From an uncultured Prevotellaceae bacterium (lineage in GTDB: Bacteria > Bacteroidota > Bacteroidia > Bacteroidales > Bacteroidaceae): a DNA stretch of 36,637 nucleotides. The notes under the pieces were generated by a model. The model ran no database searches and was not told the origin of the DNA. It saw only the letters and a list, made by a program, of their open reading frames with translations. Both the position numbers and the translations under genes were made by a program. Of the stretch, positions 7,792 to 27,693 are shown one piece after another. How positions within the stretch are numbered: the first letter of the stretch is position 1; each line of letters opens with the position of its first letter. The DNA lies in contig CAMWRK010000001.1 in NCBI GenBank assembly GCA_947176655.1, positions 1 to 36,637 on the forward strand, in the 5' to 3' direction.

Positions 7792-8766
7792 TCAAGCGGC
7801 CACTGCATAATTTCCAGGTTTCCGAAACGTAATGGTATATGTGTGCTTGTTCTCCGGAGCCTCACTGATGTTCTCGCCTTTTACTATGATTGTCAGGACT
7901 GCGGTTCCTTTGTCGTACTCTGCAGTATATGTGGCAGCGCGACCTGTCATGTCAACACCGGTGAACAGAGCCGGATCATAAACCTCGTCCACAGTGCTGC
8001 CCATGGCAACTTTCCGCCCGTTGTATGTGATAGCCGTAGCCTCGCTGTGGTAGAGCATTTCCATGTCGTCGATGAACATATAGTCGTTCTTATTACCTTT
8101 TCCGGGCTTTGAACTTGTGGCTATGTATACCAAAGCATAATACGGTTTCTCATTAGTCTCTTCATTACCAAACGGAATGATGTACTCTGTCCATTTATCG
8201 TTGCTTTTGATATCGTCCTTGATGGCTTTGGATACCAACGTTGCGGTGATTTTACCTGTATTCACATAGGGATCCTGATAATACCCTTTCGTGGTTAAGA
8301 ATACGGAAACCTTGGCCCTGTTAGAGCCCCGGAACTTTAGCCAGACACGGACAGCATCGGGACGCCCGCTGAAACGCATGGCCTGATCCTCGCGAGTCTC
8401 ATTGATATAATTGTAATTGCCGCTGCCGTCGGATGGATTCATGGAAGACATATTCACGCAACCTGTAGTAAGATTACCCTGTGCGACAACAAAAAATACG
8501 TTGCGGGCATGTATTCTTGCCGAATACCGCCCTGACGTTCCCGGGCGCAACTCCCTGGAACTCTTCTCCAATTGTATTGCACCGGCCATACTCTTATAGC
8601 CACCTGTACCATCCATAAAAGAGCTCCATCTCACAGGCTCTTCCCCCCTTTTGCCACCGTATGCCACCGTCTCCCACACCTCAAAGTCGGAATTGGCAAC
8701 CTGATATTGTGCGGCAGCGGTCAATGTCATTCCCATGGCAAATGCCACAAATAACGCGTTCTTCAT
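7792..8766 (-). CDS. secreted PCMD-like domain protein (last gene of the lipoprotein operon)
   Basis: ORF 7792..8796. I placed the start at MKNALFVAFAMGMTLTAAAQ (cat at 8764-8766), a signal peptidase I-type signal rather than a lipobox. The mature N-terminus (YQVANSDFEVWE) and the segment KNDYMFIDDMEMLYH parallel the PCMD-like modules of the genes at 11303 and 13950. Confidence 0.75.
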   Translation of the reverse strand: MKNALFVAFAMGMTLTAAAQYQVANSDFEVWETVAYGGKRGEEPVRWSSFMDGTGGYKSMAGAIQLEKSSRELRPGTSGRYSARIHARNVFFVVAQGNLTTGCVNMSSMNPSDGSGNYNYINETREDQAMRFSGRPDAVRVWLKFRGSNRAKVSVFLTTKGYYQDPYVNTGKITATLVSKAIKDDIKSNDKWTEYIIPFGNEETNEKPYYALVYIATSSKPGKGNKNDYMFIDDMEMLYHSEATAITYNGRKVAMGSTVDEVYDPALFTGVDMTGRAATYTAEYDKGTAVLTIIVKGENISEAPENKHTYTITFRKPGNYAVAA

Positions 8767-8809
8767 AAAGCCGGCTAATGGAACTCTACGTCTCAATTAT
8801 ACCATTCGG

Positions 8810-9475
8810 TCAGTTGTAATAATACCGTATATTATATATCTTGCCTGCCTCCTGATCCGATACCGTCACCTCTGTCGTCTGGTGCACGACTCCATCTGTA
8901 TTTGCGGTCATCAGATTATAGGCAAAACCGTTGTCCGCGCTGAAATAGGCAGTCTGCCCATCCTCCAACGATACGGTTCTGTCAGCACTATGGACTGTAA
9001 ACGTATACTCCGGAAACAACAAAGCAAAGCGTTCCGGAAGTGTCAGGCACACACCGTAATTGATCATTGGCACCTTATAGCGGCAGTAGGCCGTGTTATC
9101 TTCTTTTATCTGAACCACAGTATCTCCGAAGAGACATGCCTCACCGAGTCCGCCGTTTGCCGTAGCCCATGAAGACTGATTGTCCGTATAAGCACGAAGC
9201 GTGTACCTTCCTACCGGCAGGTCTATCACCTGAGGAATCTGACCGCTCTGATACTGTCTGACCACCGAAGCCTCGCTATCCAGAATCATCACGGCAAATT
9301 GGACTTCAGAGTCCGAAGAACGTACAACCACCGGCTGTGTGGCATCCAGCAGTGTCAGGCATAATCTGCCACAAGACGGTTTGTCTGCTGTCATGTCCCC
9401 GCTGCTGCAAGAAGACATGAGTAAGAGCACGGCAAATGCATACCCCAAAAGACATGTAAGAAGACTATTTCGCAT
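8810..9475 (-). CDS. DUF4493-like lipoprotein (paralogue 5; FimA-like N-terminus)
   Basis: ORF 8810..9523. I placed the start at MRNSLLTCLLGYAFAVLLLMSSC (cat at 9473-9475), which gives a lipobox. It shares the paralogue motifs GRLCLTLL...VVVRS, PVGRYTLRAYT and NYGVCLTL. The start overlaps the upstream stop by 11 nt. Confidence 0.7.
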   Translation of the reverse strand: MRNSLLTCLLGYAFAVLLLMSSCSSGDMTADKPSCGRLCLTLLDATQPVVVRSSDSEVQFAVMILDSEASVVRQYQSGQIPQVIDLPVGRYTLRAYTDNQSSWATANGGLGEACLFGDTVVQIKEDNTAYCRYKVPMINYGVCLTLPERFALLFPEYTFTVHSADRTVSLEDGQTAYFSADNGFAYNLMTANTDGVVHQTTEVTVSDQEAGKIYNIRYYYN

Positions 9476-11306
9476 ATTTGTACGAGAGTTTGTGTATGAA
9501 GCTTTTGGTTTGGCCGGAACCATAGCTGTTATTGGCTTTTACACTGGTAGCATCGGCATTGAGAGTGAATGTGACATGGTCGTCATACTTGTTGTACACA
9601 CTACTGAAGAATTTGGTGCCGGAATCCTTGGAAAAATAGGTATAATCGCCCACCGACAGAGTAAGCGTGGTACCAACAGTGGCACCATTAGTGGCAACGG
9701 TATAAGGACAGTCCATCCGTGTTCCTGCCGGTATGGCAAAGCGGTCGGACGTAATGTACTGCGGTTGTGATGTGGTGTTTTGCCCCAGGCGTACGCACGA
9801 CATGCCACTGTCCGAGACATCCCAATTGACAGTACCATGACTGTTCCATCCTGCATCTCTGGTTGGCGGAGCATATTCGGCGGGAAGACCGGTTATGCGC
9901 ACATCCTTCTGCGTCATGACTGTTATGTCTGCAAATGTTGCAGTGCATGACAGTGTGTACTCCGTCAGCGATGGAGCCAGATTTGTCACGTCAGGATATG
10001 AGATACGACTACCGTTCATGGTTCCGGAAAGTGTTGTCTCGTTGACGGTTGTCGTGACAGATGGCGCATACGTCGGATTGTTCAGAAGAGACGGAGCAAT
10101 TCCAATGTTTACGGATGGGGCATACAATGTATAGGCATCACAATTGTTCGCGCCATCCACATCGCCGGACAAGTATTTTGAATATGAAGTGTATCCATCC
10201 GCCACAATATCGACCGTAGGCTTTGTCACGTTGAAATCGCGTGCACCGGTTTCGCTCTCAATGCCGTCCCTGATTACATAGAAGACAGCCCGATACTGAC
10301 CGGAAGGAAGATACGGATATTCCATGCCCTGTTCATCGTGTCCCGATGCTAACGCCCCGTCTCCCTGTACACTGCGCATGACAGCATTTGCAGAGTTCTC
10401 CACGACTGCCTTCCATTCAAATCCCGGATACCCGTTGCCGAAATCGATATCTGTTCCGGCAAGCCGGCCTTCCGCGTCGAATGCATGATGGACCTGTACA
10501 CCGGGAAGCGGCAACCATGACAACGGGATTGTCTGCTGGAGAGTCACTTCCTCAATCTCTACAGCAGAAATCTCTATCGCCATAAGGCTCTGCGGATCGG
10601 GCAATGACAGCGTAACAATGGCATGTTCGGCAGGGGCAAACGATGACGGGAAATCTGTTTGGGAAAGATCCAGCATAGCGCTGACATGTCTGCCGTCCTC
10701 TTTAAGAACGCCAGTAAATTCCAGTGAGACACTGCTGCCGGAACGGAAATATACGCTTTGGTACGATTTCTTGTCTGAAACAGTTGCATAATACCCATCC
10801 ACATGCACACGGACAGCATAACTGTCATACAAACGCGAGAAACGTTCCTGCTCCTGCACATCACGTCCAAAGCGTACAGAGACCAATGAGTTGGCAACGC
10901 TGCATGCCACGTCTACCTGCGTGTTCTGCCCATGTTCTACACTGACATTATCCGCCGTGCCGAGATAGTATGGCTCATCTATGGCTATAAGCGGATTGTC
11001 ACCGCATGAAACAGACACTTCATAAAGCCCTGTCGCAAGCGGTATGGCGGTATCTGTCAGCTTGTCCCGATAACATATCATTCCGTCCTGATTTCTCACG
11101 ACAAGTGAAAACCTGTCCAATGACGGTGCACCGATTTCCACCGGTGTACTGCGTGTCTCAATTTGTGATGACACATTGTTCAGTCTGACATTGAGTGTTC
11201 CCTCTTCCCGTTGAGGTAAATCAGCCTCCGTCTGACATGCTGTAAGGATCAATGCAAATAGCAGTGCAGGGATGTTATTTATGATGTTTGCTTTTTTTAT
11301 GATCAT
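9465..11306 (-). CDS. DUF4493-like lipoprotein with ~370-aa C-terminal extension (paralogue 4)
   Basis: 613-aa ORF with lipobox LILTAC followed by QTEADL. Paralogue motifs: GTLNVRLNNVSSQIETRS, TGLYEVSVSCGD, EPYYLGTA and QVDVACSVANSLVSVRF. ATGA overlap with the upstream gene at 11303-11306. Confidence 0.75.
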   Translation of the reverse strand: MIIKKANIINNIPALLFALILTACQTEADLPQREEGTLNVRLNNVSSQIETRSTPVEIGAPSLDRFSLVVRNQDGMICYRDKLTDTAIPLATGLYEVSVSCGDNPLIAIDEPYYLGTADNVSVEHGQNTQVDVACSVANSLVSVRFGRDVQEQERFSRLYDSYAVRVHVDGYYATVSDKKSYQSVYFRSGSSVSLEFTGVLKEDGRHVSAMLDLSQTDFPSSFAPAEHAIVTLSLPDPQSLMAIEISAVEIEEVTLQQTIPLSWLPLPGVQVHHAFDAEGRLAGTDIDFGNGYPGFEWKAVVENSANAVMRSVQGDGALASGHDEQGMEYPYLPSGQYRAVFYVIRDGIESETGARDFNVTKPTVDIVADGYTSYSKYLSGDVDGANNCDAYTLYAPSVNIGIAPSLLNNPTYAPSVTTTVNETTLSGTMNGSRISYPDVTNLAPSLTEYTLSCTATFADITVMTQKDVRITGLPAEYAPPTRDAGWNSHGTVNWDVSDSGMSCVRLGQNTTSQPQYITSDRFAIPAGTRMDCPYTVATNGATVGTTLTLSVGDYTYFSKDSGTKFFSSVYNKYDDHVTFTLNADATSVKANNSYGSGQTKSFIHKLSYKYAK

Positions 11307-12994
11307 TCGTAAAGTAGTTTCATATTGTCAAGTTGCAGCAACGACTTATCGCCACCGAGAAAATAATCACCGTATTTGCTGCTGGAGGCAACGATTATAA
11401 TATATTTCGGAGTGCGGTTTCTATGCCTGTATTCTATCTGTATGGTGTGTGTCGTCCATTGGGTTACGTCACAATCCTGCGTAAGCTGGCCATAAGCTAT
11501 CACATTGTCACTCTGCGGGTCGAACAGTTTAAGTTCCGACGGACGGGTACGTATTACATAAGGGTAAACTGTTCCTTCGAATTCTTCCTCGTCCGCATCA
11601 CCGATGAGAGCCACATACACCTGGCACATGTCAGGCTTGCCGCGCAATCCCTCGTATACCTCACGACTGATGTAACGTGCATAGGACTCCTCCCATTTTG
11701 TGCCGCCCTTGTTTATTATTGACGAGTAATAACGGAAATCAAATTGCAGATGTGTCGGAAAACTGTTGAAAGGCCTGCCAAAGCCTAAAATGCCGTTTGT
11801 TCCGTCCGTCTTGAGATATTTACCGGTAAAGATGCTGCCGGCAGCAAACTTGATGACAATGTATTTGGACTGCAGATTGGCAAATGTACGCCCGTCTTCT
11901 GTAACACCGGTAGTATTGCTTGCACCTACAGTGGTTGCACCACGGTTACCGGTATCCCAGTAAGCGGTCTGTCCGTCTGCCCATGGCCTGTACAATATCT
12001 GATTGCCCGCACCTTCCTGACTCCAAAAATCAAAACTGCCGTTTTCTATCTGTATTGCAGGCGCAGTGGTAAAACACTTGACCGCAGTCGCTGTCTCTCC
12101 CGAAACAACCTGCAGTTCATATTCCGTACCCGGAAGCAAGCCATCCACCTCCGCACTGTATTCTGTCTGGGATGTGACAACCTTTTCCGCAGGCAATACA
12201 CACCACTCCGCCTCACCAGTCTGACGATACTGAACCTTGGGCGTAGTGCCGTTCTGTTTTTCACCACTTACGAATGCCCTGACCGAGTGGGCAAATACGG
12301 ATGCTGTCGTGGACAGGTGGCTGTCTGCATTGTATACATACACATTCCACGTCTCCAACTCCGTCTTCCAGGCACATCTCACAGAGAAAGTCCTTCTCAT
12401 GCTGAAATCCAGCGTCTGCCCCGTAGGATCGGGAGTGACCGTACCGTGAATGCCTCCGAGCACCATCTTATTGACCTTTACAGCCGAAAGATTCTGCGAG
12501 GGTGACACATAGACCACAACATTATTGTTGACGGTATCTATGACAGCTGTCCCCACCTGGTTCTCTACCTCAACCTCACGCACGACGACCTGATGTACAC
12601 GTATCTTCCATTCATACTTCTGGTACGTTACAAGTTCAAAGACTACCTCCTGCGAGAAGTCCAATGTAGGCATGAGACCTTGGCTGGGCTTAAAGGAAAT
12701 GTCCGTACCCTTAACCCTGACAGTGGCGTCATTACTGACATCCATACTTCTGATGTACAGTTTGCTGACATCTACCCTGTCATCGACATAAATGTCCACC
12801 GTCCGCTTTTCCTTGTCTATCAAAGCCACAGGTTCGCCCTGTCCATTAGGAGAGCACTGACCCTCAATGAGTATATCGGTTATCTCACTCTTTACCAAAG
12901 GCAAAGGCAGGTCATCCTTTATGGTGCAGGAATGCAGCAACAGTATTGCCAGCAGAGAATGGTATATTATGAATGTGTATATGCTGCGTTTCAT
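11303..12994 (-). CDS. lipoprotein with a distinct N-terminal region, an FN3-like module and a PCMD-like C-terminal domain
   Basis: 563-aa ORF with lipobox LLHSC followed by TIKDD (a K-D-D export-signal-like motif). FN3-like segment: PKVQYRQTGEAEWCVLP...LLPGTEYELQV. PCMD-like segment begins AIQIENGSFDFWSQ and ends KYGDYFLGGDKSLLQLDNMKLLYE. ATGA overlap with the upstream gene at 12991-12994. Confidence 0.75.
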   Translation of the reverse strand: MKRSIYTFIIYHSLLAILLLHSCTIKDDLPLPLVKSEITDILIEGQCSPNGQGEPVALIDKEKRTVDIYVDDRVDVSKLYIRSMDVSNDATVRVKGTDISFKPSQGLMPTLDFSQEVVFELVTYQKYEWKIRVHQVVVREVEVENQVGTAVIDTVNNNVVVYVSPSQNLSAVKVNKMVLGGIHGTVTPDPTGQTLDFSMRRTFSVRCAWKTELETWNVYVYNADSHLSTTASVFAHSVRAFVSGEKQNGTTPKVQYRQTGEAEWCVLPAEKVVTSQTEYSAEVDGLLPGTEYELQVVSGETATAVKCFTTAPAIQIENGSFDFWSQEGAGNQILYRPWADGQTAYWDTGNRGATTVGASNTTGVTEDGRTFANLQSKYIVIKFAAGSIFTGKYLKTDGTNGILGFGRPFNSFPTHLQFDFRYYSSIINKGGTKWEESYARYISREVYEGLRGKPDMCQVYVALIGDADEEEFEGTVYPYVIRTRPSELKLFDPQSDNVIAYGQLTQDCDVTQWTTHTIQIEYRHRNRTPKYIIIVASSSKYGDYFLGGDKSLLQLDNMKLLYE

Positions 12995-13950
12995 AAATAG
13001 AATGTCAGTCCGAGATTGACACTGAATATATTGAACCTGAAGTTGGCTCCGCCACTATTGCTTTTTCCCATCTCATATTCCGTAGCCCCGGGATGCAGGT
13101 TCTTGTATTTGGTCCACTGGTAATTTATACCCATAACACCGATAGAGGTCTCTACTGCCAGAAAGTCTGTAACAAACACGCAAATGCCGGGAGAAACACC
13201 CAGCTGCACTGCATGAGCTGTTACATACGAGCCGTCCAATGTATTGATACCATTGCTCTCGTCCCTTATTCCGGTACTGTTCTTACCCTGCGCATTGGCA
13301 TAAGAGAATCGTGCTTCGGCAAAGCATCCAAAGATCTTGCTTCCGAACAATGGAGTGTAATATCGCATGAAAACAGCAGCCTCATGTTTATGCTCCAGAT
13401 CGTACAGATCCTTGAGGTTTATGTTAAGATCCTCTCCGAGACTCAGCTCCAGACTCCCCAGGTCGAAATATTGCCTGCTGTAGTTATAGCGGGCTCCGAC
13501 AGCCAGATTATCGGCAAAGAAATATCCCACTGCAGGGGAAACGCTAAGAATGTGAGCCTTCAGGTCAAGGTTCTTGAGCACTACAAAGTTGATGTTCTCA
13601 TTATCCCACTCACGATAGTTCGCAGAAAGTCCGGCCATCCACGTTCCCTTCGGAATAAACACAGCCTTGAGTTCACTACGGTCAACACGCTGTATACGGC
13701 GCGTCGATTTGGGACGCCGTGGTTTCTGCTTCAACATCCGTATCAAGTCCTGTACCGATATTGAGTCATGTATCGACATCAGTTTCTGCACCGATATTGA
13801 ATCATGCTGCACTATCGAATCCCGAACCGCCACAGAGTCCTGTATCGCCACAGAATCCTGTATATCTATTGAATCCTGTGCTGACACTGCCACATATCCG
13901 AAGATAAATAGCAGTGTCAGTAAAGAAGATTTGATGATGTTTATTTTCAT
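12991..13950 (-). CDS. small outer-membrane beta-barrel (porin-family/OMP_b-brl-like) protein with N-terminal hexapeptide repeats
   Basis: 319-aa ORF with a signal peptide (...GYVAVSA|QD). After a repeat region and a basic linker (KQKPRRPKSTRRIQR), the rest shows alternating hydrophobic beta-strand patterns (AVGARYNYS, AAVFMRYYT, AEARFSYA, ANFRFNIFSVNLGLTFYL) with an aromatic-rich C-terminal strand. Confidence 0.75.
   Translation of the reverse strand: MKINIIKSSLLTLLFIFGYVAVSAQDSIDIQDSVAIQDSVAVRDSIVQHDSISVQKLMSIHDSISVQDLIRMLKQKPRRPKSTRRIQRVDRSELKAVFIPKGTWMAGLSANYREWDNENINFVVLKNLDLKAHILSVSPAVGYFFADNLAVGARYNYSRQYFDLGSLELSLGEDLNINLKDLYDLEHKHEAAVFMRYYTPLFGSKIFGCFAEARFSYANAQGKNSTGIRDESNGINTLDGSYVTAHAVQLGVSPGICVFVTDFLAVETSIGVMGINYQWTKYKNLHPGATEYEMGKSNSGGANFRFNIFSVNLGLTFYL
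13735..13878 (-). repeat. about 8 degenerate tandem 18-bp (hexapeptide) repeats inside the barrel gene
   Basis: The protein reads QDSIDI QDSVAI QDSVAV RDSIVQ HDSISV QKLMSI HDSISV QDLIRM. The DNA shows the matching 18-nt periodicity (e.g. gagtcctgtatcgccaca / gaatcctgtatatctatt / gaatcctgtgctgacact on the plus strand). Confidence 0.8.
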
Positions 13951-15743
13951 TATTGCAGAGTTGGTTCACCGTATTCGAATGAGAAGTCATCTACATACAT
14001 GACATTGCTGTCTGAACCGTAGAAGTAGTCACCCCACTTGTTGGCACTACATACAATAAGCATGTATGCGGGCTTTTTGTTCGTGACATGATACCTCAGT
14101 GGTATGGTAAACTCTTCCCACTGACCATTGGTACCGGTATTCCTCGTCAATTCTCCGTAAGCTATTACGCGCGGGTCTTCCTCCCAGTTGATGACGGTAC
14201 TCTTCTTGTACTCGCCACTTTCCGCATTGCCACCGACCTTCAACTGCTCTGTCAGCAATGCGCAGAAAATCTGGCAGGCATCCATCTCGCCCTTGGCCGG
14301 AGCACCTGCACCAGAAGGCTGGTTTCCACGATTGATTGCGCCCGGAGTAAACGCGAAATAACCCTTCAAAGCACTGGGACGTGAAACAAACGGGACACCC
14401 CAATCCAGTTTGGCACCGCTTGTGCCTATCAAGTCTACGCATTTTCCAGTAAACAGGCTGGCAGCGGCAAGTTTGATGACAACATATTTTGTAGCCAACT
14501 TGGCCGAATATGTACCGCTGTGAACCATTTCCGTACTGCGTGTAGTGACATTGTACGATTCGCCCATAGTTGTTGCGCCAGGATTACTTGAATCCCAATA
14601 AGTGCCACCCTCAGCATTGGGATACCACGAATTACCGCCCTTGTACCAATTCTCGAAGCTGGCATTCTCAATAGCGGTCTGGCTTTCGGTGACGAACTCC
14701 ATCTCGTTGCTGTTCACTCTGGTCTCTCCGTTATTGTAGCTCATACGGTATACGTAGGTCTTGGCCGGAGTCAGTCCGCTAAGATGATAGGTGTATCCAT
14801 CAGCACCATCGGATACAAGCTGAGAATAAGGAATCTCAGTCCATCCCGGCGCTGTCTTCAGACGGTACTGCATTGTAAGTTTTGTAGCGTCAAACTCAGA
14901 GGTCTTGGCTGTTACCGAACCAGTAAGGTCAGCAAACGTGCTCCAAGCATTGGCCGTCATAACCTGTAAAGACGTAGAACTCTTTCTGGGAACCTCTATG
15001 TTGAACGTGTATGACTGCGTAGCGTCGTCCACAGACACGGAAACACCGCCCATATTGCCGGCCTCGGCAATCTTGTAGTTGACGATATAGTGGTCGCGCG
15101 CCTTCACACCTGTCACGTCTCTTGACATGGAATGCTCCTCTCCGGCCATATTCGTAACAGCCAGCAGGAAGTTGAGGTTGCCGACAGGGAAATAGGCCGA
15201 ACCGACTGTCTGGTAACCGAAACGACGCATTGCAACGCCCTCTACAGCCGAACTTACGATACAGGATGCTTCGCGGAAATATTTGCGGAAATTCTCGTCA
15301 AACTTGACACTCACCTTGACATTGGCCTGCGTCAGAGTAAGGGTAGCCTTGGTCAGTGTCTTGGCCGCTATCGTCACTCTTGTGAAGCCGTCATAGTACG
15401 GTGCACCAAAACCTGAGCCAGAACCGTCCCAACCTGCGGAACTGCCGTGGATGGTGTACGAACCCTGCGGAAGAACGATATTGCCCTTGAACGCATCGTC
15501 GTTGCTGACATCTTCCGTTGACATCACCACCTTGCCACTGTTGTTGTCCGTAATCTGCACACTTATCTTTTTGGGATTGTAGCCCTCGGGCTTGTCTGCA
15601 CGCGTGTTGGTGGACGTAAGGGTATTGAGTTCCAGACGCAGATAGCCTGCGCTGTTCATCATCTCCAGTTCTTGCCCGTTATCGCATGATGCAACAAGCA
15701 TGGAGACGGCACACATAATCAGTATATATATTCTTGTTTTCAT
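13950..15743 (-). CDS. DUF4493-like + FN3-like + PCMD-like fusion lipoprotein (paralogue 3)
   Basis: 597-aa ORF with lipobox LVASC followed by DNGQELE. Paralogue motifs: GYLRLELNTLTSTNTRA, QGSYTIHGSSAG, APYYDGFT and ATLTLTQANVKVSVKF. FN3-like segment: LTMQYRLKTAPGWTEIP...LTPAKTYVYRM. PCMD-like segment begins AIENASFENWYK and ends KWGDYFYGSDSNVMYVDDFSFEYG. TAATG overlap with the barrel gene at 13950. Confidence 0.8.
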   Translation of the reverse strand: MKTRIYILIMCAVSMLVASCDNGQELEMMNSAGYLRLELNTLTSTNTRADKPEGYNPKKISVQITDNNSGKVVMSTEDVSNDDAFKGNIVLPQGSYTIHGSSAGWDGSGSGFGAPYYDGFTRVTIAAKTLTKATLTLTQANVKVSVKFDENFRKYFREASCIVSSAVEGVAMRRFGYQTVGSAYFPVGNLNFLLAVTNMAGEEHSMSRDVTGVKARDHYIVNYKIAEAGNMGGVSVSVDDATQSYTFNIEVPRKSSTSLQVMTANAWSTFADLTGSVTAKTSEFDATKLTMQYRLKTAPGWTEIPYSQLVSDGADGYTYHLSGLTPAKTYVYRMSYNNGETRVNSNEMEFVTESQTAIENASFENWYKGGNSWYPNAEGGTYWDSSNPGATTMGESYNVTTRSTEMVHSGTYSAKLATKYVVIKLAAASLFTGKCVDLIGTSGAKLDWGVPFVSRPSALKGYFAFTPGAINRGNQPSGAGAPAKGEMDACQIFCALLTEQLKVGGNAESGEYKKSTVINWEEDPRVIAYGELTRNTGTNGQWEEFTIPLRYHVTNKKPAYMLIVCSANKWGDYFYGSDSNVMYVDDFSFEYGEPTLQ

Positions 15744-15769
15744 AGTCTTGTCTTTTTATGTATGTTAGG

Positions 15770-17038
15770 TTAATTTACCGTAAGCGTCAGTGAACCTTCC
15801 TTCTTACCACCCTTCATGTCTGTTATCACCAAGTCAAATGTATGTGCTCCGGGCAATACTTGCAGCAGACTGAAGAAATTGCCTATCGGGAAGGTATATT
15901 CCTTGTCGCCCTGAGCAGGAACTGTCAATGTCTGGCCAAGTTCGGTAAACAGATTTACCATTTGTGTATTGCCGACAACCTCTGCACCGTTTACGAAATC
16001 CACGTGATACCCGTCCTCAAGGTCTGCCAATGAAGAGAGCATATCCTCACTGGTTGAGGACATCTTGACTACGATGCTCTTGATTCCGTTCTCGCACTTT
16101 ATGTACGTATTGCCCAATGACGGATCCGTGCCTGGTGCCAGTACCATGTTCTGGGGAAGGTTCAGGAGAATCTTGGAATCATCGTTGCCAGGCTCATCAC
16201 CACCTTGGTTGCCACCCTCCTCAAATCCGGGCTTGTCAACGACAATGACTGTTACTTCCTCGTTCGTTTCGGTAAATGTCACATTGGCATTTATGCTGAT
16301 GGCGTTTATCTTGCCGTCCGTAGATTCTGTCGGAGAAAAATTGAGGGTCAGAGCATCACCTCCGCCGAAGTTCTCTCTGTCATCATCGTAACTTTCATCA
16401 GCCTGGTCTTTTGTCAGCAGGCTTCTGGACGTTATTCTGCTGCCGTCTGCTGTCATACCACGGAAATTCACCGTAAGTTCTTTTGCTCCCTCCTCACCAA
16501 AATACCAGTATACGGCATTCGTAAACTCTGTGTTAGTGAAAGACAGGACTGTCTCGCTGCCGTCGCTTATGGTGATTTCCCATGATTGGAAGACATCGCG
16601 GAACTCCTGACTGTAATTCACCGTAATCAGACTGTTCTGCATTTTGCATACAATATCGACATTTGATGTCACGCCTTTCAGGATTTCCATAGTTTCCGTT
16701 CCACTGTAATACGGGTCGGACATTCTCTTCTGTATTATGCCTGGGGTATGTGATTGTACGACATAATTGCCCACAGCCATCACCACCTGTTCGGGAATCT
16801 CCGATATCGCATTGTAGGACAGAACCTGTTTTCCTTCCGCATCGTAGACATCGAGAGGAAAGTCCGTAACCTGAGAAACGGCACGCGTTTCCGTCTTCTC
16901 CGGAGTTTTTACCCGGACATTGAATACGGCTGTTCCCTCACCCTGAGCTGAGCGGTCTATATCTATGGTCTCAGTGACACACGATGTAAAAAGGACAGTG
17001 CAAAGAACACCTATCTTGAATTTATTCAGGAATTTCAT
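15770..17038 (-). CDS. DUF4493-like lipoprotein with C-terminal extension (paralogue 2)
   Basis: 422-aa ORF with lipobox LFTSC followed by VTETIDID. Paralogue motifs: GTAVFNVRVKTPEKTETRA, VGNYVVQSHTPG, DPYYSGTE and NVDIVCKMQNSLITVNY. It has an acidic Gly-rich linker (GFEEGGNQGGDEPGNDD). Confidence 0.8.
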   Translation of the reverse strand: MKFLNKFKIGVLCTVLFTSCVTETIDIDRSAQGEGTAVFNVRVKTPEKTETRAVSQVTDFPLDVYDAEGKQVLSYNAISEIPEQVVMAVGNYVVQSHTPGIIQKRMSDPYYSGTETMEILKGVTSNVDIVCKMQNSLITVNYSQEFRDVFQSWEITISDGSETVLSFTNTEFTNAVYWYFGEEGAKELTVNFRGMTADGSRITSRSLLTKDQADESYDDDRENFGGGDALTLNFSPTESTDGKINAISINANVTFTETNEEVTVIVVDKPGFEEGGNQGGDEPGNDDSKILLNLPQNMVLAPGTDPSLGNTYIKCENGIKSIVVKMSSTSEDMLSSLADLEDGYHVDFVNGAEVVGNTQMVNLFTELGQTLTVPAQGDKEYTFPIGNFFSLLQVLPGAHTFDLVITDMKGGKKEGSLTLTVN

Positions 17039-17074
17039 AAGTATAATTATTTCTAATAATGTATAGAAAGCTTG

Positions 17075-17914
17075 TTAGAGCCATGTCACGGGAATCTCGT
17101 ATGTTATCTTCTTGTCGTTAGTGCTTTCATCTATGGTGATTCCTAACTGCAGACCACCATCGGTGGTCGGAGTATAGCTTGGCCTGATTGTAAGCTTATG
17201 CGCCTTGTTGCGCTCCAGTCTGAATGTTCCTGTTGCAGAACCGTTTGCCACTGTGCCGCCATTGCCCTGTGTGAGATAGTCTTCCTTGGCTTTCAGACTG
17301 ATTGTATAGTTGATGTTCTCGCCATTCTTGTCCAAGGCTATATACCATGGCTCGACATCTGTCTTGCTCCAGGCAATGGTGCTTGAACCCAACATCTTGG
17401 TTCCGCCAAACGTTACGTTATAGTCGTCAAAATATGTTGCCATTGTCTGGTCAAAGTCAACAGACACCTTTCCGCATGTGGGCGAACAGTTCACCACAAC
17501 GCTCTTTTCCTCCTTTGCCTTGAGGGTGACCACCGTCGAACCGCTCATGAAGAACTCGTCACGGCTTGCATCATGCTCTGCACCGTAGGTGGCAGTAATC
17601 TTGTAGCTGCCGATGTCAAATGTCTTCGGGAGATAGGAACCCAGCTCATAAGCCTTGCATTCCAGCAACACATTGTCGTTGGAGGCATTTATTATCTGAA
17701 CCGTATATTCACTTGTGAGCATATAATTGCTCTCATTCAGCGAACGCGTACCTTCACTAAAAGAAGGATCGGGATTAAGATTTATACTCAGCGTCCCTTT
17801 TCCCAACTCATTTGGCGGGGAAACCAAATTCAGATTCTTATCATTCGCGCTACAAGAAGCAAGTGCCAATGATGCAAGAATACCAAAACGAAAAAAAATG
17901 TTTCTTCTTTCCAT
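17075..17914 (-). CDS. DUF4493-like lipoprotein (paralogue 1; first gene of the operon)
   Basis: 279-aa ORF with lipobox LALASC. Paralogue motifs: GTLSINLNPDPSFSEGTRS, IGSYKITATYG, DEFFMSGS and SVVVNCSPTCGKVSVDF. Confidence 0.8.
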   Translation of the reverse strand: MERRNIFFRFGILASLALASCSANDKNLNLVSPPNELGKGTLSINLNPDPSFSEGTRSLNESNYMLTSEYTVQIINASNDNVLLECKAYELGSYLPKTFDIGSYKITATYGAEHDASRDEFFMSGSTVVTLKAKEEKSVVVNCSPTCGKVSVDFDQTMATYFDDYNVTFGGTKMLGSSTIAWSKTDVEPWYIALDKNGENINYTISLKAKEDYLTQGNGGTVANGSATGTFRLERNKAHKLTIRPSYTPTTDGGLQLGITIDESTNDKKITYEIPVTWL

Positions 17915-18014: not shown

Positions 18015-18125
18015 CCTTATTTATATTATACGCGCGCGAAATATTGGTAAAACCTTGCATTTTACCGAATCTTCCTCAAAAATACACGGTTTCATCGCAA
18101 TGACAGCAAGTGCAAAAAACATTTT

Positions 18126-18845
18126 TCACTTCATCGCCGCCTCGGCATCCTTGCTGAGACGTTCCACCGAGGCACGGATGATGACCACATCCTCCAGCGG
18201 TCTGTCGTTGGTATCGGTGGGGCATTTCTGTATCTTTCCGACAATATCCAGTCCCTCTATGACCTCGCCGAAAACAGTGTACGCACCGTCCAAGTGCGGT
18301 GTGCCCCCATACATCTGATAGTCGCTTATCATGAACCTGTCAAGTTCAATTCCTCTTTCAGAAAGGTAAGATATAGCCTTCTTCAAATCGGCAGGAGCCA
18401 TCTTGCGCCCCCATACTATATAGAACTGCGAACCGCTGCTGCGGAAGTCGGGATTGACATCATCGCCCTCGCGTGCCGCCGCCACAGCGCCGCGCACATG
18501 GTACAGGTCTGGAAACACTATCTCTGCCGGCAGAGTGTAGTCCTGTCCGCCCTCGCCGAGAAGCGAATCCTTGTTGGCATTGCGGCTGTCGGGGTCACCG
18601 CCCTGAATCACGAAGCTCTCTATGACTCGGTGAAAGAGAAGTCCGTCGTAATATCCCGATGCGGCAAGACGCAGGAAGTTGTCCCTGTGCACCGGTGTCA
18701 TGTCGGACAGGGCTATGCGGATGTCGCCAAGCGAGGTCTCAAGATGTACCACACTGCGTTTCTCCTTACGAACTGCAAGAGCGGATACCGGCATCATGAA
18801 CAACAAGGCCAGCAGGCCGGCAAGAAAAGTTGATAGGCGTGTCAT
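18126..18845 (-). CDS. secreted cyclophilin-type peptidyl-prolyl cis-trans isomerase
   Basis: 239-aa ORF with a signal peptide (LLALLFMMPVSALA). Cyclophilin motifs: YYDGLLFHRVIESFVIQGGDP, GSQFYIVWG and LDGAYTVFGEVIEGLDIV. Confidence 0.9.
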   Translation of the reverse strand: MTRLSTFLAGLLALLFMMPVSALAVRKEKRSVVHLETSLGDIRIALSDMTPVHRDNFLRLAASGYYDGLLFHRVIESFVIQGGDPDSRNANKDSLLGEGGQDYTLPAEIVFPDLYHVRGAVAAAREGDDVNPDFRSSGSQFYIVWGRKMAPADLKKAISYLSERGIELDRFMISDYQMYGGTPHLDGAYTVFGEVIEGLDIVGKIQKCPTDTNDRPLEDVVIIRASVERLSKDAEAAMK

Positions 18846-19018: not shown

Positions 19019-20659
19019 TTAATCTACCAGAACATCATTGCCCCGGATTATTCGATGATGCAATCCATCGCATCCGACAAATGCATCTCTGGCAATATGT
19101 TTCACGCCATGCGGAATAATTACAGTAGAAAGTTTTCTGCATCCGGCAAAAGCGTACCGGCCAATGTCACATATCCCATCCGGAAGGACAAGAACTTCAG
19201 GAGTGTTGACAAAAGCATACGAACCTATGGCAGTCACTTCTGGCAGGAAACGCGTTGTGGCACAGCCGAGAACCAGTCTGCCAGTCCTTCTCTCAACGAT
19301 TGAGTTTGAACCGTCAGATTTGTAGACCGTATTGTCTTTGGCAACTGTTATGGCCACGCATCTCTCACTGTAACGGAATGCCGTGGAATCAATGCCAGCC
19401 ACCGAAGCTGGGATGTCAATGGATGTAATGCCGCTTCCCTCAAATGCAAAAGCGTCTATATACCTGACTCCGTCCGGAATGACCGTACCGTTACATCCTG
19501 CCAACAATGCGCCGTTCGATGTCCGGATGATGGCGTTGCAATTGTTACGGGAATCATAGTATCTATTCTTCGGATCTACAACAATAGAGTGCAACGATAC
19601 ACAACCGGAAAACATACCGTTCCCCAGTTCCTTGACTCCATCCGGAATATAAATGCTGTCCAATGACGTGCAGTCTCCGAACTGCCCTCCCTTTTCAAAG
19701 CATGTCAGTGTGCATGGCAGAATGACACGCTTTAGCGAATGACATCTCCAGAAGGCATCAGCACTGACAGTAGCCACACCCTCCGGTATCGTTATGCTAT
19801 GCAGGTTGATGCAATACTGAAAGGCACTCTCGCCAATGACATCCACGCCGGAGGGAATTACTGTTGTGCAGCAACCTCTGACGAGACAACCTCCCTCTAT
19901 TATCGCATTGCAGTTTTCTCTTGAGTCGTAAACCCCATTCCTTTCGTCCACAGTTATTGATGTAACATTTGGACAATAGTAGAATGCTTCCCCGTCAACC
20001 ATTTCCACAGTAGACGAAATATGTATCTTTGTCAGATCGGGACACCTATAGAAAGCGTACTTGCAAATGTTTTTTATTCCTTCGGGAATGATAACAGAAT
20101 CAACAAGACAACCGTCGTAGGCCGCTCCGCGTATACATTCGACGGAAGAAGGAATTTTTGTTCCCTTGCATCCATAGACAAGGCCATTGCTTCTTGTTAG
20201 GATTATAGCGTTGCACCTGTCTCTGCTGTCAAATATCCTGTTGCCGTCATCTACGTAAATCGACGACAAAGCGATGCAGTAAGAAAAGACATATTCGCCT
20301 ATAACCCTCACACTGGCAGGAATATGTATCGCCTCCATGTCCGTACAAGCACAGAAAGCACTGTCGCATATCTCTTCTATACCGTTGCTTATGTCGACTT
20401 GCCTTATGCTACTGCACCGGGCAAACGCAGAATTCCCAATACCTCTTACATAATATGTCTTACCATTGTGGCGAATCTTGGCTGGAATATTCAGGACAGC
20501 GTCCTTGAATGGATACCCATCATTCCATGCCACAATATTGACGGAATCCTTGCAGATAACCTTGTACTGAAAACCTGATTCGACAAAAGTGGAATCAGCC
20601 TTTGCACACAGTATCGGAAATAATACCGCAAGGCAAAATATGTACAGCCTTTTCAACAT
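19019..20659 (-). CDS. BspA-like leucine-rich-repeat (LRR_5-type) surface protein
   Basis: 546-aa ORF with a signal peptide. It has many repeats of the pattern IP.GV..IG..AF..C..L.SI.IP and recurring NCNAII / YDSR(D/E/N) motifs, characteristic of BspA-type LRR proteins. Confidence 0.85.
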   Translation of the reverse strand: MLKRLYIFCLAVLFPILCAKADSTFVESGFQYKVICKDSVNIVAWNDGYPFKDAVLNIPAKIRHNGKTYYVRGIGNSAFARCSSIRQVDISNGIEEICDSAFCACTDMEAIHIPASVRVIGEYVFSYCIALSSIYVDDGNRIFDSRDRCNAIILTRSNGLVYGCKGTKIPSSVECIRGAAYDGCLVDSVIIPEGIKNICKYAFYRCPDLTKIHISSTVEMVDGEAFYYCPNVTSITVDERNGVYDSRENCNAIIEGGCLVRGCCTTVIPSGVDVIGESAFQYCINLHSITIPEGVATVSADAFWRCHSLKRVILPCTLTCFEKGGQFGDCTSLDSIYIPDGVKELGNGMFSGCVSLHSIVVDPKNRYYDSRNNCNAIIRTSNGALLAGCNGTVIPDGVRYIDAFAFEGSGITSIDIPASVAGIDSTAFRYSERCVAITVAKDNTVYKSDGSNSIVERRTGRLVLGCATTRFLPEVTAIGSYAFVNTPEVLVLPDGICDIGRYAFAGCRKLSTVIIPHGVKHIARDAFVGCDGLHHRIIRGNDVLVD

Positions 20660-22016: not shown

Positions 22017-23243
22017 ATGAAGAATATTGTACACCTTTTTATATTATTTATATCCGGCATACTCATTCCAACCCTGTTCATGACTTCCTGCGGCGACGAA
22101 CTGCCATATCCAGACGAAAAACTCGGAGGAAACACCGTAATCATATACATGGGAGCGGACAACAGCCTGTCCGGCAACGCGTACTCCGACCTCGAAGAGA
22201 TGCAAAGAGCCGTGCGCGACATTCCGGACGATTGCCAACTGGTGGTGTACAAGGACGGAGAACTGAAACCCGCGATATACCGTTTCACGAACAAAGGCAG
22301 GACAACATGGAAAGAGTTTGGGGAGGAGCACAACAGTGCTGATCCGGCCACGGCACGGAGCATCCTGCAGGACATCGTCAGAGATTTCCCGTCCAGGAAA
22401 TATTCGCTGATTCTGTGGAGCCACGGTTCCGGATGGATGGCTCCGCCGACCAGTTCCCCGCAGAAAGCCATCATACAGGACAAGAACACGGGCAACACGC
22501 AGACAGGTGGCACATCGTCACAGGGCAGCTGGCTCGGCATCGATGAGCTGGCCGACATACTGGCAACATTGCCCCGCATGGAGTACATCATGTTCGACGC
22601 ATGCTACATGCAGAGCGTGGAAGTCGCGGCAGAGCTGTACAGCTATACGGACTACATCATCGGCTCGCCGACAGAGATTCCGGGAGCCGGAGCACCATAC
22701 CACCTGACACTGAAGGCCATGTGCCGTGCCGACATACAGGGCATCATAGACAATTATGCGGCTGCATATCCGGGAAACTACGGTGTGCTGCTCTCCGCCG
22801 TGTCATGTGCTGAGTTTCCGGCTTTCTGCGAAGCCACGGCAAAATGCATTCCCCTCGCCTTCAACAAGGAAAACATGCCATCTCTGGCCGGAATACAGAT
22901 CTATGCTCCGGCCTTCGGTACGTCCCTGCCATATCAGAAAAGTATGCCGGTGCCATACGACATGCGCTCCGCCATGCACCGCGTGCTTCCGGACGAGACC
23001 TGCGAGATCTGGGAGAAACAGTGGAGAAAGACCATCCTGTACCCTGTAAAGGCCGAAGGATGGGTAAGCATCTACGACAGCTACAGATACGGCCACTTCC
23101 ACTGCACCATGACTGACCCGGAGCACTACGGAGGCATCTCCATGAACATCCCGGACAGCAAATACGACACCAAGGGGTGGAACAAGGAGTTTGCACAGAC
23201 AGAATGGTACAAGGCCGGCAGCTGGGAGCAGACAGGATGGTAG
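22017..23243 (+). CDS. clostripain-family (peptidase C11) cysteine protease lipoprotein
   Basis: ORF 21999..23243. I placed the start at MKNIVHLFILFISGILIPTLFMTSC (ATG at 22017), which gives a lipobox. C11 catalytic dyad contexts are present: LILWSHGSGW (His-Gly) and YIMFDACYMQS (Ala-Cys). The N-terminal VIIYMGADNSL is typical of the family. Confidence 0.85.
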   Translation: MKNIVHLFILFISGILIPTLFMTSCGDELPYPDEKLGGNTVIIYMGADNSLSGNAYSDLEEMQRAVRDIPDDCQLVVYKDGELKPAIYRFTNKGRTTWKEFGEEHNSADPATARSILQDIVRDFPSRKYSLILWSHGSGWMAPPTSSPQKAIIQDKNTGNTQTGGTSSQGSWLGIDELADILATLPRMEYIMFDACYMQSVEVAAELYSYTDYIIGSPTEIPGAGAPYHLTLKAMCRADIQGIIDNYAAAYPGNYGVLLSAVSCAEFPAFCEATAKCIPLAFNKENMPSLAGIQIYAPAFGTSLPYQKSMPVPYDMRSAMHRVLPDETCEIWEKQWRKTILYPVKAEGWVSIYDSYRYGHFHCTMTDPEHYGGISMNIPDSKYDTKGWNKEFAQTEWYKAGSWEQTGW

Positions 23244-25226: not shown

Positions 25227-26393
25227 ATGAGCATGAATACCAAGACATACATTACTGCATTAATCTGCATTATATGCGCGGTATATGCCTGTACAGAAGC
25301 ACGCCATAGCGAAGCACGCATATGTGAAACGGTCAGCAACACACAGTCCAGCGATTATTGTGCAGATACGTTGCTATTCCATGAATGCATGGAAATACAC
25401 TTACAGGACTCCGTACGAGAAGCCTTTGTCAGCAGAATTGACAGGCTTATCATAACTGGCGACACTCTCTATATCACTGATACCAAACAGCGCTCTGTAG
25501 TGGCGTTCAACACCAAGGGAGAATACCTGTTCCGCATCAATCACCGCGGACATGGAAACAAAGAATACACCGATCTGATAGACGTGGCCTACGACAAATG
25601 GAAACATGAACTGCTGTTCCTCGTATACCCCAAGGCAATCTTTCACTACACTCCTGACGGTCGGCACATACGGACAACTCCCGTTGAAGAGGCATACACA
25701 GACATATGCGCAGACTCCACATTCTACTATCTGGCAGAGGAGACGTATACAAATGGGATAATGACAGACAAGGCTCTGGCCATAATGAACAAAAACAGTC
25801 TGAACATAACACGCACTATTGACATCGAACACGAACAAGCTCCGTTCTGCTCCTTGGGGCGTAAGTTGTACTCCGGAGTTGGAGACCGTATATGGTTCAC
25901 ACGCAAGTTCGATTACACGCTATACTCTTTCTCCAATGGCATTGCACTGTCGGATGTTATCGTCAATTATGGCTCCAGGGAGATGGGGTGTCAGGACAGG
26001 AGCACACGATGGGACTGCATGGAACTGGCACGGTATGCAAACGAAAATAACTACGTGTATGGCATGCACAATATCTGTGACGGACAGCATACTATGGTGT
26101 TCTCTACCAATCAAAACGATATTAATGTCATGGACAAGAAGAAGCATAGCAGCATATCATACCGGGGGATAGTACAATCAACATACGGCACCCAGTTGAG
26201 GCACTATGCCGTGATTGACGGTTCCGACGCCAAATGTGTATTCTTCTTTTGGCCGGAAGAGTACGACAGTGCACGCCGATCACTCCGGGAGAATCCGGAT
26301 ATAACCATGAAAGTGAGCACGGAGTACCTTCGTCTGTTGGCGACAACCGATGGACGGCACAATCCGGTTCTCTTCATATACACTCCCAGATAG
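25227..26393 (+). CDS. 6-bladed beta-propeller lipoprotein (BF3164/DUF5128-like), the usual partner of NVEALA genes
   Basis: 388-aa ORF with lipobox AVYAC. The segments GDTLYITDTKQRSVVAFNTKGEYLFRINHRGHGNKEYTDLIDV match my recollection of the G.GP.E-type blade motif of Bacteroides 6-bladed propeller lipoproteins. It sits directly downstream of the NVEALA-like gene. Confidence 0.6.
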   Translation: MSMNTKTYITALICIICAVYACTEARHSEARICETVSNTQSSDYCADTLLFHECMEIHLQDSVREAFVSRIDRLIITGDTLYITDTKQRSVVAFNTKGEYLFRINHRGHGNKEYTDLIDVAYDKWKHELLFLVYPKAIFHYTPDGRHIRTTPVEEAYTDICADSTFYYLAEETYTNGIMTDKALAIMNKNSLNITRTIDIEHEQAPFCSLGRKLYSGVGDRIWFTRKFDYTLYSFSNGIALSDVIVNYGSREMGCQDRSTRWDCMELARYANENNYVYGMHNICDGQHTMVFSTNQNDINVMDKKKHSSISYRGIVQSTYGTQLRHYAVIDGSDAKCVFFFWPEEYDSARRSLRENPDITMKVSTEYLRLLATTDGRHNPVLFIYTPR

Positions 26394-26433
26394 TGCAACC
26401 TTACAACACAAAATACGCCATATAGCACCAGAA

Positions 26434-26459
26434 CACAGACACAGACACAGACACAGACA
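26434..26459. repeat. hexanucleotide microsatellite (CACAGA)x4.3
   Basis: The sequence cacaga cacaga cacaga cacaga ca lies in the 88-bp spacer between the propeller gene stop (26393) and the C1 peptidase ATG (26482). It causes the HRHRHRHR and CVCVCVCV artefact ORFs in the six-frame track. Confidence 0.9.
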
Positions 26460-26481
26460 ACAAACAAAATATCAAAAACCA

Positions 26482-27693
26482 ATGAACAAGTACCTTTTCA
26501 TGGCAGTTTCCGCGATATGCGCCCTGCCCGGAACAGCCCAAGAGGCCAAGAAAGAGATTCCTGCCGATTCTCTCGTATTCACGACAGTACTGGCAAATCC
26601 CGTAACAAGCATCAAGAACCAGAACAACTCCGGTACATGCTGGAGCTACTCAGCTCTGGCTTTTCTGGAGAGCGAGGCTCTGAAGAAAGACCCCTCCAAG
26701 ACCGATCTGGACCTGTGCGAATCATTCCTTGTAAGCAAGACCTACACCGACCGTGCAGACCGTAACGTGCGTACACACGGCGACGCCAGCTTCAGCCAGG
26801 GCGGTTCTTTCTACGATGCCATCTTCTGCATGGAGCGCTACGGTCTGATTCCCGAAGGTATCATGCCCTACCCCATCACCCCCTACGGCGACTCTCTCTT
26901 CAACTTCACAAATTTCTTTCCCCCCATGGAGGCATACGTCAAGAGCATAGCCACAAGCAATGCCAAGAAAATCAACCCCATCTGGAAAAAGGACGTGCAG
27001 GGCATGCTGGACAACTACTTCGGCAAGTGCCCAGAGGAGTTCGAGTATAAGGGCAAGAAGTACACTCCGCAGAGTTTCGTCAAGGAATACCTGAAACTGG
27101 ATCCCAACGACTATGTGTCCCTGACCAGCTATACGCACCACCCCTTCTACACCCCCTTCATTCTGGAAATTCAGGACAACTGGCGCTGGGCGTCAAGCTA
27201 CAACCTGCCTCTCGATGAGTTCATGCGCGTCATGGAGGAGAGCGTAAAGAGCGGCTGGACATTCGCCTGGGGTGCCGACGTGAGCGAAGACGGCTTCAGC
27301 CGCCGCACCGGCAAGAACAAGTGTGTGGCCACCGTGCCCGACACCAAGACGACAAGCGGTGTGGGCAGCGACCAGAGCCGCTGGACTGGCGAGAAGGCCG
27401 GAGCAAAAATTTCACAGAACGACGCTGCCGGCGAAAAGACCATCACCCAGGAAATGCGTCAGGAGGGCTATGACAACTGGACCACGACAGATGACCACGG
27501 TATGCAGATATACGGCATTGCCAAGGACCAGAACGGCAAGGAATACTTCATGATGAAGAACTCATGGGGCGAATACGGCCCCTACAAGGGCTTCTGGTAC
27601 GTGAGCAAGCCCTATGTCGCATACAAGACAATGAACATCGTCATAAACAAGAATGCCATTCCCAAGGACATCCGCAAGAAACTGGGCATATAA
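26482..27693 (+). CDS. secreted papain-superfamily (C1; aminopeptidase C/bleomycin-hydrolase-like) cysteine peptidase
   Basis: ORF 26350..27693. I placed the start at MNKYLFMAVSAICALPGTAQEA (ATG at 26482), a signal peptide. Catalytic Cys context: IKNQNNSGTCWSYSALAFLE. C-terminal His/Asn region: DHGMQIYG...YFMMKNSWG. Confidence 0.85.
   Translation: MNKYLFMAVSAICALPGTAQEAKKEIPADSLVFTTVLANPVTSIKNQNNSGTCWSYSALAFLESEALKKDPSKTDLDLCESFLVSKTYTDRADRNVRTHGDASFSQGGSFYDAIFCMERYGLIPEGIMPYPITPYGDSLFNFTNFFPPMEAYVKSIATSNAKKINPIWKKDVQGMLDNYFGKCPEEFEYKGKKYTPQSFVKEYLKLDPNDYVSLTSYTHHPFYTPFILEIQDNWRWASSYNLPLDEFMRVMEESVKSGWTFAWGADVSEDGFSRRTGKNKCVATVPDTKTTSGVGSDQSRWTGEKAGAKISQNDAAGEKTITQEMRQEGYDNWTTTDDHGMQIYGIAKDQNGKEYFMMKNSWGEYGPYKGFWYVSKPYVAYKTMNIVINKNAIPKDIRKKLGI

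Follow-up and report, generated by a model that had tools for sequence, protein, structure and literature searches.

Of the adhesive fibres known from Bacteroidales of the gut, mouth and rumen, type V pili are the principal kind, and strong sequence divergence delayed their recognition. Fim/Mfa-like pilins of Bacteroides were reportedly described by Xu and colleagues in 2016. Here we analyse a cassette of genes for lipoproteins of the family DUF4493 (PF14900) in a stretch of DNA of 36,637 nt from an uncultured Prevotellaceae bacterium (GenBank assembly GCA_947176655.1, contig CAMWRK010000001.1, positions 1 to 36,637; the whole stretch is referred to below as the window). A first-pass annotation of this sequence had proposed that the genes might encode a divergent, multi-subunit type V-like pilus or surface polymer. 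The results presented below give good support to the view that DUF4493 belongs, as a distant member, to the type V (FimA/Mfa) pilin superfamily and has retained the precursor architecture.

The closest described proteins are matured by proteolysis. Cleavage sites have been located at R49 of Mfa1, R43 of Mfa3 and R54 of Mfa4, and the anchor Mfa2 is without a cleavage site; processed pilins have a long flexible loop between strands beta1 and beta2, beta1 is held by three or four hydrophobic side chains, and in mature Mfa1 the C-terminus can take the position of beta1 (Hall et al., PMC5789003). In Bacteroidales of the gut it is surface clostripain that cleaves the pilins, and C-terminal ligand-binding domains are typical of tip pilins; fragipain, with orthologues conserved throughout the phylum, cuts many surface lipoproteins and so releases them (Comstock, 2025; PMC12632263). 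A check of FimA in the PDB revealed that the precursor (6jzk) starts at the Cys and the polymerised chain (6kmf) at A47, right after ...KTSNSNR46, so that the layout ascribed to Porphyromonas gingivalis FimA in the first-pass annotation was right, although its quotation (KTSNPNR, YKGEQ) was off by one or two residues. With R46 in FimA and the three Mfa sites given above, the distance from Cys to cleavage site is similar to that from Cys to R/K in the DUF4493 proteins.

The DUF4493 paralogues and their prosegment

Five genes of the cassette, all on the minus strand, encode DUF4493 lipoproteins, namely g1 (17075..17914), g2 (15770..17038), g3 (13950..15743), g6 (9465..11306) and g7 (8810..9523). 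Membership of PF14900 was judged by the Pfam gathering threshold of 27 bits, which was passed by g1 (279 aa, consisting of the pilin module only; E 1e-42, 146.8 bits), g2 (422 aa; E 1e-45, 156.5 bits, residues 33-264), g3 (597 aa; E 9e-42, 143.8 bits), g6 (613 aa; E 1e-29, 104.1 bits) and the short g7 (E 1.5e-15, 58.1 bits, profile positions 3-196 of 226). The Pfam model begins at a strand of the form G-x-phi-x-phi-x-phi. This strand, beta1, lies within a prosegment running from the lipobox Cys to an Arg, the coordinates of which were confirmed by translation: C21-SANDKNLNLVSPPNELGK-GTLSINL-NPDPSFSEGT-R57 in g1 (17744-17854, minus strand, as are the others), C20...GTAVFNVRV...TETR52 in g2 (16883-16981), C20...GYLRLEL...TNTR48 in g3 (15600-15686), C24...GTLNVRL...IETR52 in g6 (11151-11237) and C...GRLCLTL...VVVR in g7 (9320-9409). 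The five N-termini quoted in the first-pass annotation are thus present exactly as written, as is the second strand, ending in D/N..G, that it had placed after the prosegment.

The five paralogues of the window share 16-22% identity and 7 invariant columns, three of which fall in the prosegment, namely the lipobox Cys, the Gly that opens beta1 and the Arg 28-36 residues past the Cys. Orthologues of g1 to g7 were assigned by phmmer in loci from 80 species of the GTDB and in three further loci from metagenomes or metagenome-assembled genomes (MAGs). The lipobox Cys was conserved in approximately 100% of them (64-83 orthologues per paralogue). The Arg column, counted over aligned orthologue residues, was R or K in 83/83 for g1, 79/79 for g2, 74/76 for g3, 70/71 for g6 and 59/64 for g7; the Arg, loss of which from orthologues had been held to count against the pilus proposal, has therefore been kept as R/K in 92-100% per paralogue. 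A T-(R/K)-(A/S) site was present in 92-100% of orthologues for every paralogue, with an information content of 3-4 bits for the T at P2 and the A/S at P1', neighbouring loop columns being gap-rich and having about 1 bit. The distance from Cys to Arg in orthologues was 25-37 residues, and the linker past the Cys was variable but acidic.

The same pattern was found in the wider family. A profile search against 1.84 billion representatives (E<=1e-3) identified 3,984 DUF4493 members (50%-identity clusters), with the domain almost always directly behind the signal peptide. In the best 144 of these 3,984 representatives a lipobox was present in essentially all, and the motif positions were occupied by G in 135, T/S in 138, R/K in 136 (R 107, K 29) and A/S/T in 130, R-to-K being the only common substitution at the site. 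Extra DUF4493 paralogues that lie downstream of g7 in other species also carry G-phi-x-phi-x-phi...TRA. Conservation of the motif is far beyond chance. Because the residue is exclusively basic, the next residue small and the context flexible and rich in indels, this is the pattern expected of a protease site rather than of a structural residue. As a separate observation, positions 33-82 of the DUF4493 N-domain profile were matched 22 times in one protein of 5,167 aa (P0236), indicating that part of the module is also a tandem repeat unit in giant proteins.

Relationship to type V pilins

The AlphaFold2 model of g1, for which 57 orthologues were used (mean predicted local distance difference test score (pLDDT) 79.7, predicted template modelling score (pTM) 0.73), comprised two beta-sandwich domains, with a pLDDT of about 92 for beta1 (residues 39-48) and about 67 for the loop that contains R57. 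Foldseek searches of the PDB with this model returned Bacteroidales type V pilins as all 17 of the 17 best matches (E 2.9e-7 to 1e-4, probability 1.00), which bears out the expectation of a two-domain pilin-like fold, at template modelling (TM) scores of only 0.28-0.45. Among these best matches were 3up6, 3gf8, 4gpv, 4rdb (PG_0181, which we take to be Mfa4), 3pay, 4k4k, 3r4r, 4qdg, 4eps, 3ufi and 5cag. The structures 3pay, 3gf8 and 4qdg are putative anchor pilins (Hall et al., PMC5789003). Lower matches included the type V structures 3t2l, 4dgu, 4jrf and Mfa1 (5nf3), as well as Gram-positive pilins and transthyretin. A model of the predicted mature g1 (S58-L279) had a pLDDT of 84.7 and type V pilins still came out on top (best E 1e-4), but the number of matches at E<=1e-3 was 3, compared with 31 when the prosegment was included, suggesting that beta1 contributes to the likeness with pilin crystal structures in precursor form.

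At the end of the module are two strands (...ITIDES... and ...I-x-I-E-V-P-V-T-W-I) that form the C-terminus of g1 but lie internally in g2, g3 and g6; in g6 the module closes with ...TIPLSWL followed by a P-x-P linker. In g7 the final, Trp-containing strand seen in the other four is missing in all orthologues. The C-terminal strand of g1, ...ITYEIPVTWL, is free and conserved, the orthologue form being the consensus given above. Although P275 and W278 were invariant in the 57 orthologues, the last 15-25 residues of the g1 model had a pLDDT below 50-60, a combination to be expected if the strand lacks stable packing in the monomer.

In addition to the cassette, the window contains a small canonical type V locus (31608-35070, plus strand) that encodes an OmpA-like plus DUF3575 barrel outer-membrane protein, a DUF5119 lipoprotein and an Mfa_like_1 fimbrillin (33976-35070). 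The homologues of this fimbrillin (n=55), used as the reference alignment, had an invariant C18, and K41 and R44 were conserved in at least 90% of them, in agreement with the earlier statement that it shares the layout. Its relatives are mostly annotated as Muribaculaceae. The two loci are alike in that a barrel-type outer-membrane protein gene stands beside lipoprotein pilin genes and in that the fimbrillin has Cys, strand and K..SRA in the same succession; they differ in that the canonical locus belongs to other Pfam families, has only two pilin-type genes and lacks PCMD domains. The barrel protein g4 of the cassette was considered as a relative of DUF3575 and rejected, as no similarity was detectable.

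Comparison of the g1 orthologues with the Mfa_like_1 family of the window by hhalign yielded a match at the domain junction (probability 79%, E 1.6e-5), in which V.V.C.PTCGKVSV.F of DUF4493 was aligned with N..V.F.FKH.L.KI.A.F of the fimbrillin. The orthologue sets of g2, g3, g6 and g7 matched the same family at the N-terminus with probabilities of 69-94%, signal peptides included, and these alignments were colinear, pairing Cys with Cys, beta1 with beta1 and the TRA of DUF4493 with the SRA of the fimbrillin. A greedy global alignment that also paired TRA with SRA was not counted as evidence. Sequence searches of the PDB yielded no meaningful match for g1, g2 or the g1 family profile.

The DUF4493 proteins therefore share with type V pilins (P. 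gingivalis FimA-E and Mfa1-5, and Fim/Mfa-like proteins of Bacteroides; for example, 4q98, 6kmf, 5nf2, 4rdb, 3pay and 3gf8) the lipoprotein precursor, the two transthyretin-like beta-sandwich domains (in g1, according to the model), a beta1 followed by a flexible loop with R/K some 25-37 residues past the Cys, and a conserved Trp near the C-terminus of the module. Five paralogous subunits per operon, some with C-terminal ligand-binding domains, are likewise common to both. In contrast to type V pilins, the DUF4493 proteins are encoded in a cassette that always includes a beta-barrel outer-membrane protein and a PCMD lipoprotein, and their module is smaller (about 240 aa).

Proposed maturation and assembly, and competing explanations

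Proteolytic maturation after the R/K of T-R/K-A is likely, judging from the motif. A gene encoding a Peptidase_C11 (clostripain-family) lipoprotein, with the lipobox ...FMTSC followed by the acidic GDELPYPDE, is located at 22017-23243 (plus strand), 4 kb from the cassette; its product would be an Arg-specific protease on the cell surface, of the fragipain type, and is a candidate maturase. In the mechanism we favour, the DUF4493 proteins are made as lipoprotein precursors with conserved acidic residues past the Cys that resemble the Bacteroidales surface-export signal, and hence are probably flipped to the cell surface. In the model of the precursor, beta1 is packed with confidence in the N-terminal sandwich and is followed by the flexible loop with T-(R/K)-(A/S). 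A surface Arg/Lys-specific protease, which in gut Bacteroidales would be a C11 lipoprotein of the clostripain type, probably cuts after the R/K, so that the protein would be freed from its lipid and beta1 could leave. The emptied groove might then take up a strand of another subunit to give a short hetero-oligomeric fibre, a step of strand-exchange polymerisation that we regard as plausible but tentative. In such a fibre g1 could act as a repeating or adaptor (stalk-type) subunit by means of its free conserved C-terminal strand; g3 and g6, with a pilin module followed by FN3/PCMD lectin-like heads, and perhaps g2, could be distal tip or adhesin subunits; and g7, without the terminal strand, could be a cap. 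The barrel g4 and the PCMD lipoprotein g5 would be accessory proteins, possibly engaged in membrane attachment since there is no uncleavable anchor pilin. A more specific version, in which all pilin-type subunits are protease-matured, the fibre is held or terminated by g4 in place of a lipidated Mfa2/FimB pilin, and PCMD lectin-like heads (g3, g6 and perhaps g5) are displayed, seems rather improbable to us.

As an explanation of the whole, a divergent and previously unlabelled branch of type V pilins that works in this manner is the best we can offer, at about an even chance, and tight or overlapping gene spacing and five pilin-like genes in strict order add to its support. Several observations weigh against it. 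None of the DUF4493 proteins matched a Pfam fimbrillin family (P_gingi_FimA, Mfa_like_1/2, Mfa2, Fimbrillin_C and DUF5119 were counted), DUF4493 being the only hit by hmmscan at E<=0.1. When domain-only profiles were compared, 371 DUF4493 sequences showed no significant similarity to the fimbrillin family (probability 3%). The better hhalign scores were obtained with signal peptides included, and the alignment with fimbrillin profiles suggested in the first-pass annotation gave colinear N-termini but no significant match of the domain itself; the sequence evidence is hence consistent but weak, and the case for homology is carried by the fold search and the motif architecture. The low TM-scores imply that the relationship is remote and the orientation of the domains different. 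In the mature-form model of g1 the C-terminal 15 residues had a pLDDT below 50, with no signal of self-complementation and no rise in confidence, and the internal position of the last strand in g2, g3 and g6, where more domains follow, suggests that this strand could be an integral element of the fold and not a donor strand. No DUF4493 paralogue, the extra copies in other species included, was without R/K and no Mfa2-family gene was found in the cassette, which is thus devoid of an uncleavable anchor of the FimB/Mfa2 type; PCMD-only lipoproteins are not known from canonical type V operons; and no copy of the C11 protease gene was found in the 83 related cassette loci. Of the multi-subunit type V-like pilus proposed earlier, the remote link to the pilin superfamily and the prosegment layout in all five paralogues have accordingly held up, but no anchor was found, and the mature-form model gave no indication of a C-terminal strand in the groove.

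The strongest rival is that these proteins are shed adhesins, in which a pilin-derived fold is retained, T-R/K-A is a release site for a clostripain of the fragipain type, by which they would be set free into the medium or left in loose association, and soluble or non-filamentous proteins bind glycans through their PCMD heads and do not polymerise. Fragipain does release many surface lipoproteins (PMC12632263). The substrates of fragipain or clostripain in B. fragilis and P. dorei, which are released by a cut behind an Arg close to the N-terminus, are, like the DUF4493 proteins, surface lipoproteins whose lipid anchor is followed by an accessible Arg. The presence of a clostripain-like lipoprotein gene in the window, of the site in all paralogues with no anchor among them and of an internal last strand in three paralogues, as well as a mature-form model of g1 that shows no filling of the groove, would all suit shedding. 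However, neither a pilin fold nor a conserved beta1 defines such substrates, whereas in DUF4493 the site belongs to a structural module common to the family. If the site served release only, neither a conserved and confidently packed beta1 at a constant distance ahead of the cut nor five co-conserved paralogues in fixed order would be needed; moreover, the fold matches specifically polymerising or pilus-associated proteins, and the C-terminus of g1 is conserved yet unpacked. Shedding without polymerisation is thus possible, though in our estimation on the unlikely side.

An uncleaved complex would differ from both, in that the Arg would be structural, for instance in a salt bridge, and the proteins would remain lipid-anchored with g4 and g5 in an outer-membrane complex for glycan binding or utilisation. 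The strict co-conservation of a beta-barrel outer-membrane protein and of PCMD 'carbohydrate metabolism' domains with the pilin-like genes agrees with such a complex, the closest structural matches include the uncleaved anchor pilins 3pay, 3gf8 and 4qdg, and conservation and ordered structure extend to the residues past the Arg (TRA(V/L)NE..Y in g1, a helix in the model). A structural role is nevertheless hard to reconcile with a position at which five paralogue families and the wider family tolerate only R-to-K exchange and P1' is always small, which lies in a lower-confidence loop of variable length, and at which homologous folds have the same motif as a documented cleavage site; we consider this explanation improbable. 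That the resemblance is due to chance, Cys, strand and Arg being common to beta-rich lipoproteins of Bacteroidales and DUF4493 being unrelated to pilins, might be argued from the borderline link to fimbrillins by sequence, the lack of a PDB match by sequence and the low TM-scores. It is effectively excluded by position-specific conservation in approximately 370 orthologues and 144 representatives, by 17 top structural matches from one superfamily (probability 1.00) and by colinear hhalign alignments from four independent orthologue sets.

The five DUF4493 lipoproteins probably build an undescribed adhesive fibre or a shed adhesin complex, and glycan-directed adhesion is the likely function. 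We regard the cassette as a plausible type V pilin-like system with a family of its own, a fixed order of seven genes, PCMD heads, an obligatory barrel and no anchor pilin, for which fold homology is well supported and a pilus function plausible. No mention of DUF4493 or PF14900 was found in the literature searched, though the fold link may already stand in Pfam clans or structure-based databases, and the cassette locus was not reported in an in-silico survey of the pili of Parabacteroides distasonis. Relatives of g1 are annotated at source as 'DUF4493 domain-containing', 'hypothetical' or even 'CopC'. Assignment of DUF4493 to the type V pilin superfamily would give a concrete function to a widely conserved seven-gene cassette and to a large unlabelled family, and raises the question of how a type V-like assembly is attached without an anchor pilin where a barrel outer-membrane protein is always present. 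If the proteins are shed and not polymerised, the pilin fold would have been reused for secreted lectin-like proteins.

Gene content, conservation and surroundings of the cassette

The region 17914..7792 on the minus strand forms a single operon, g1 to g8, with short gaps or overlapping stop and start codons. The order g1-g2-g3-g4-g5-g6-g7 was kept in all related loci long enough to show it, exactly these seven genes being found in 43 loci, the others being cut by contig ends or having additional genes of the DUF4493 family behind g7. The cassette occurs in about 80 species of gut and rumen, among them Parabacteroides distasonis (for example, strain NM39_I3), Bacteroides ndongoniae (Marseille-P3108), Mediterranea massiliensis and Proteiniphilum, as well as numerous MAGs of Prevotellaceae/Bacteroidaceae. 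Going beyond the first-pass annotation, the analysis revealed the strictly conserved barrel g4, which holds its place in practically all cassettes, and the PCMD lipoprotein g5, which has no pilin module and is likewise conserved in position. No cassette protein had a family match in NCBIfam.

The g4 gene (12991..13950, minus strand) encodes an outer-membrane beta-barrel protein of 319 aa with a signal peptidase I (SPI)-type signal peptide, a weak Pfam match to OMP_b-brl and a barrel-type C-terminus, ...GmTfYL. The barrel is conserved; the N-terminal extension (residues ~25-70 in the window) consists of DS(I/V)x(I/V)(Q/R) hexads encoded by 18-nt tandem repeats at 13746-13863. In orthologues this extension is very variable in length, many having D-(S/T)-phi-x-phi strand-like repeats followed by a stretch rich in Lys/Arg, and it is absent altogether in a few to several species.

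Domains related to PCMD proteins (PF13201; 4jrl, 4het) recur in the operon, the beta-sandwich being present in g3, g5 and g8 and weakly in g6; unlike in those proteins, it is fused behind a pilin-like module in g3 and g6. In g3 the DUF4493 module is followed by an FN3-like and a PCMD domain (E 5e-41), and the PCMD part matches PDB 4jrl/4het, annotated as 'putative glycoside hydrolase'. In g6 it is followed by a C-terminal region of about 350 aa for which a weak PCMD match was obtained in orthologues, so that the domain architecture described earlier was recovered in both. The C-terminal domain of g2 (about 150 aa) is without a family match. The lipoprotein g5 (11303..12994, minus strand; 563 aa) has an N-terminal region of about 240 aa without a family, followed by an FN3-like and a PCMD domain (Pfam E 6e-35), and had no meaningful match in the PDB by sequence. 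A sixth pilin module in g5 was considered and discarded, as hhalign indicated that its N-terminal region is not DUF4493-like, and a relation between g5 and g6 was not accepted because the hhalign alignment was weak, gappy and unconvincing.

The product of g7 is 237 aa long from the first ATG (9523) and 221 aa from the ATG at 9475, the latter being the more likely start since the former overlaps g6 by 59 nt. The window copy ends directly after ...IYNIRYYYN, whereas most orthologues run on for 11-28 residues with a strand of the type GG(V/I)DI(E/V)ITDDMET and an acidic tail; this tail, of about 25 residues in most orthologues, is not present in the window copy. The last gene, g8 (7792..8796, minus strand), starts 13 nt downstream of g7 and encodes a secreted (SPI-type) PCMD-like protein of 334 aa without a Pfam match, the assignment being based on hhalign comparison with the PCMD regions of g5 and g3 (probability ~92%, E ~5e-7). 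No orthologue of g8 was found among the 83 related loci, indicating a lineage-specific addition outside the conserved cassette. A weak match of g8 to the NCBIfam hyaluronic-acid-binding family BT_4411 was also observed (E 0.008).

Scans for promoters, terminators and inverted repeats gave nothing over background. One AT-rich inverted repeat of 13 nt overlaps the start of g1. Its arms (17894-17906 and 18114-18126; 12/13 complementary) bracket a region of 207 nt upstream of g1, and one arm is located within the start of the g1 coding sequence; the repeat is probably due to chance. Directly upstream of g1 and in the same orientation, a secreted cyclophilin-type peptidyl-prolyl isomerase is encoded at 18126-18845 (minus strand), which was found in the same position in 7/83 related loci, distant ones included. 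Further upstream is a gene for a BspA-type leucine-rich-repeat surface protein (19019-20659, minus strand). Elsewhere in the window and unrelated to the DUF4493 finding, a gene for a DUF5128 six-bladed beta-propeller protein (25227-26393, plus strand) adjoins one for a Peptidase_C1-like cysteine protease (26350-27693, plus strand), the pair being located between an M24 aminopeptidase gene and recJ.

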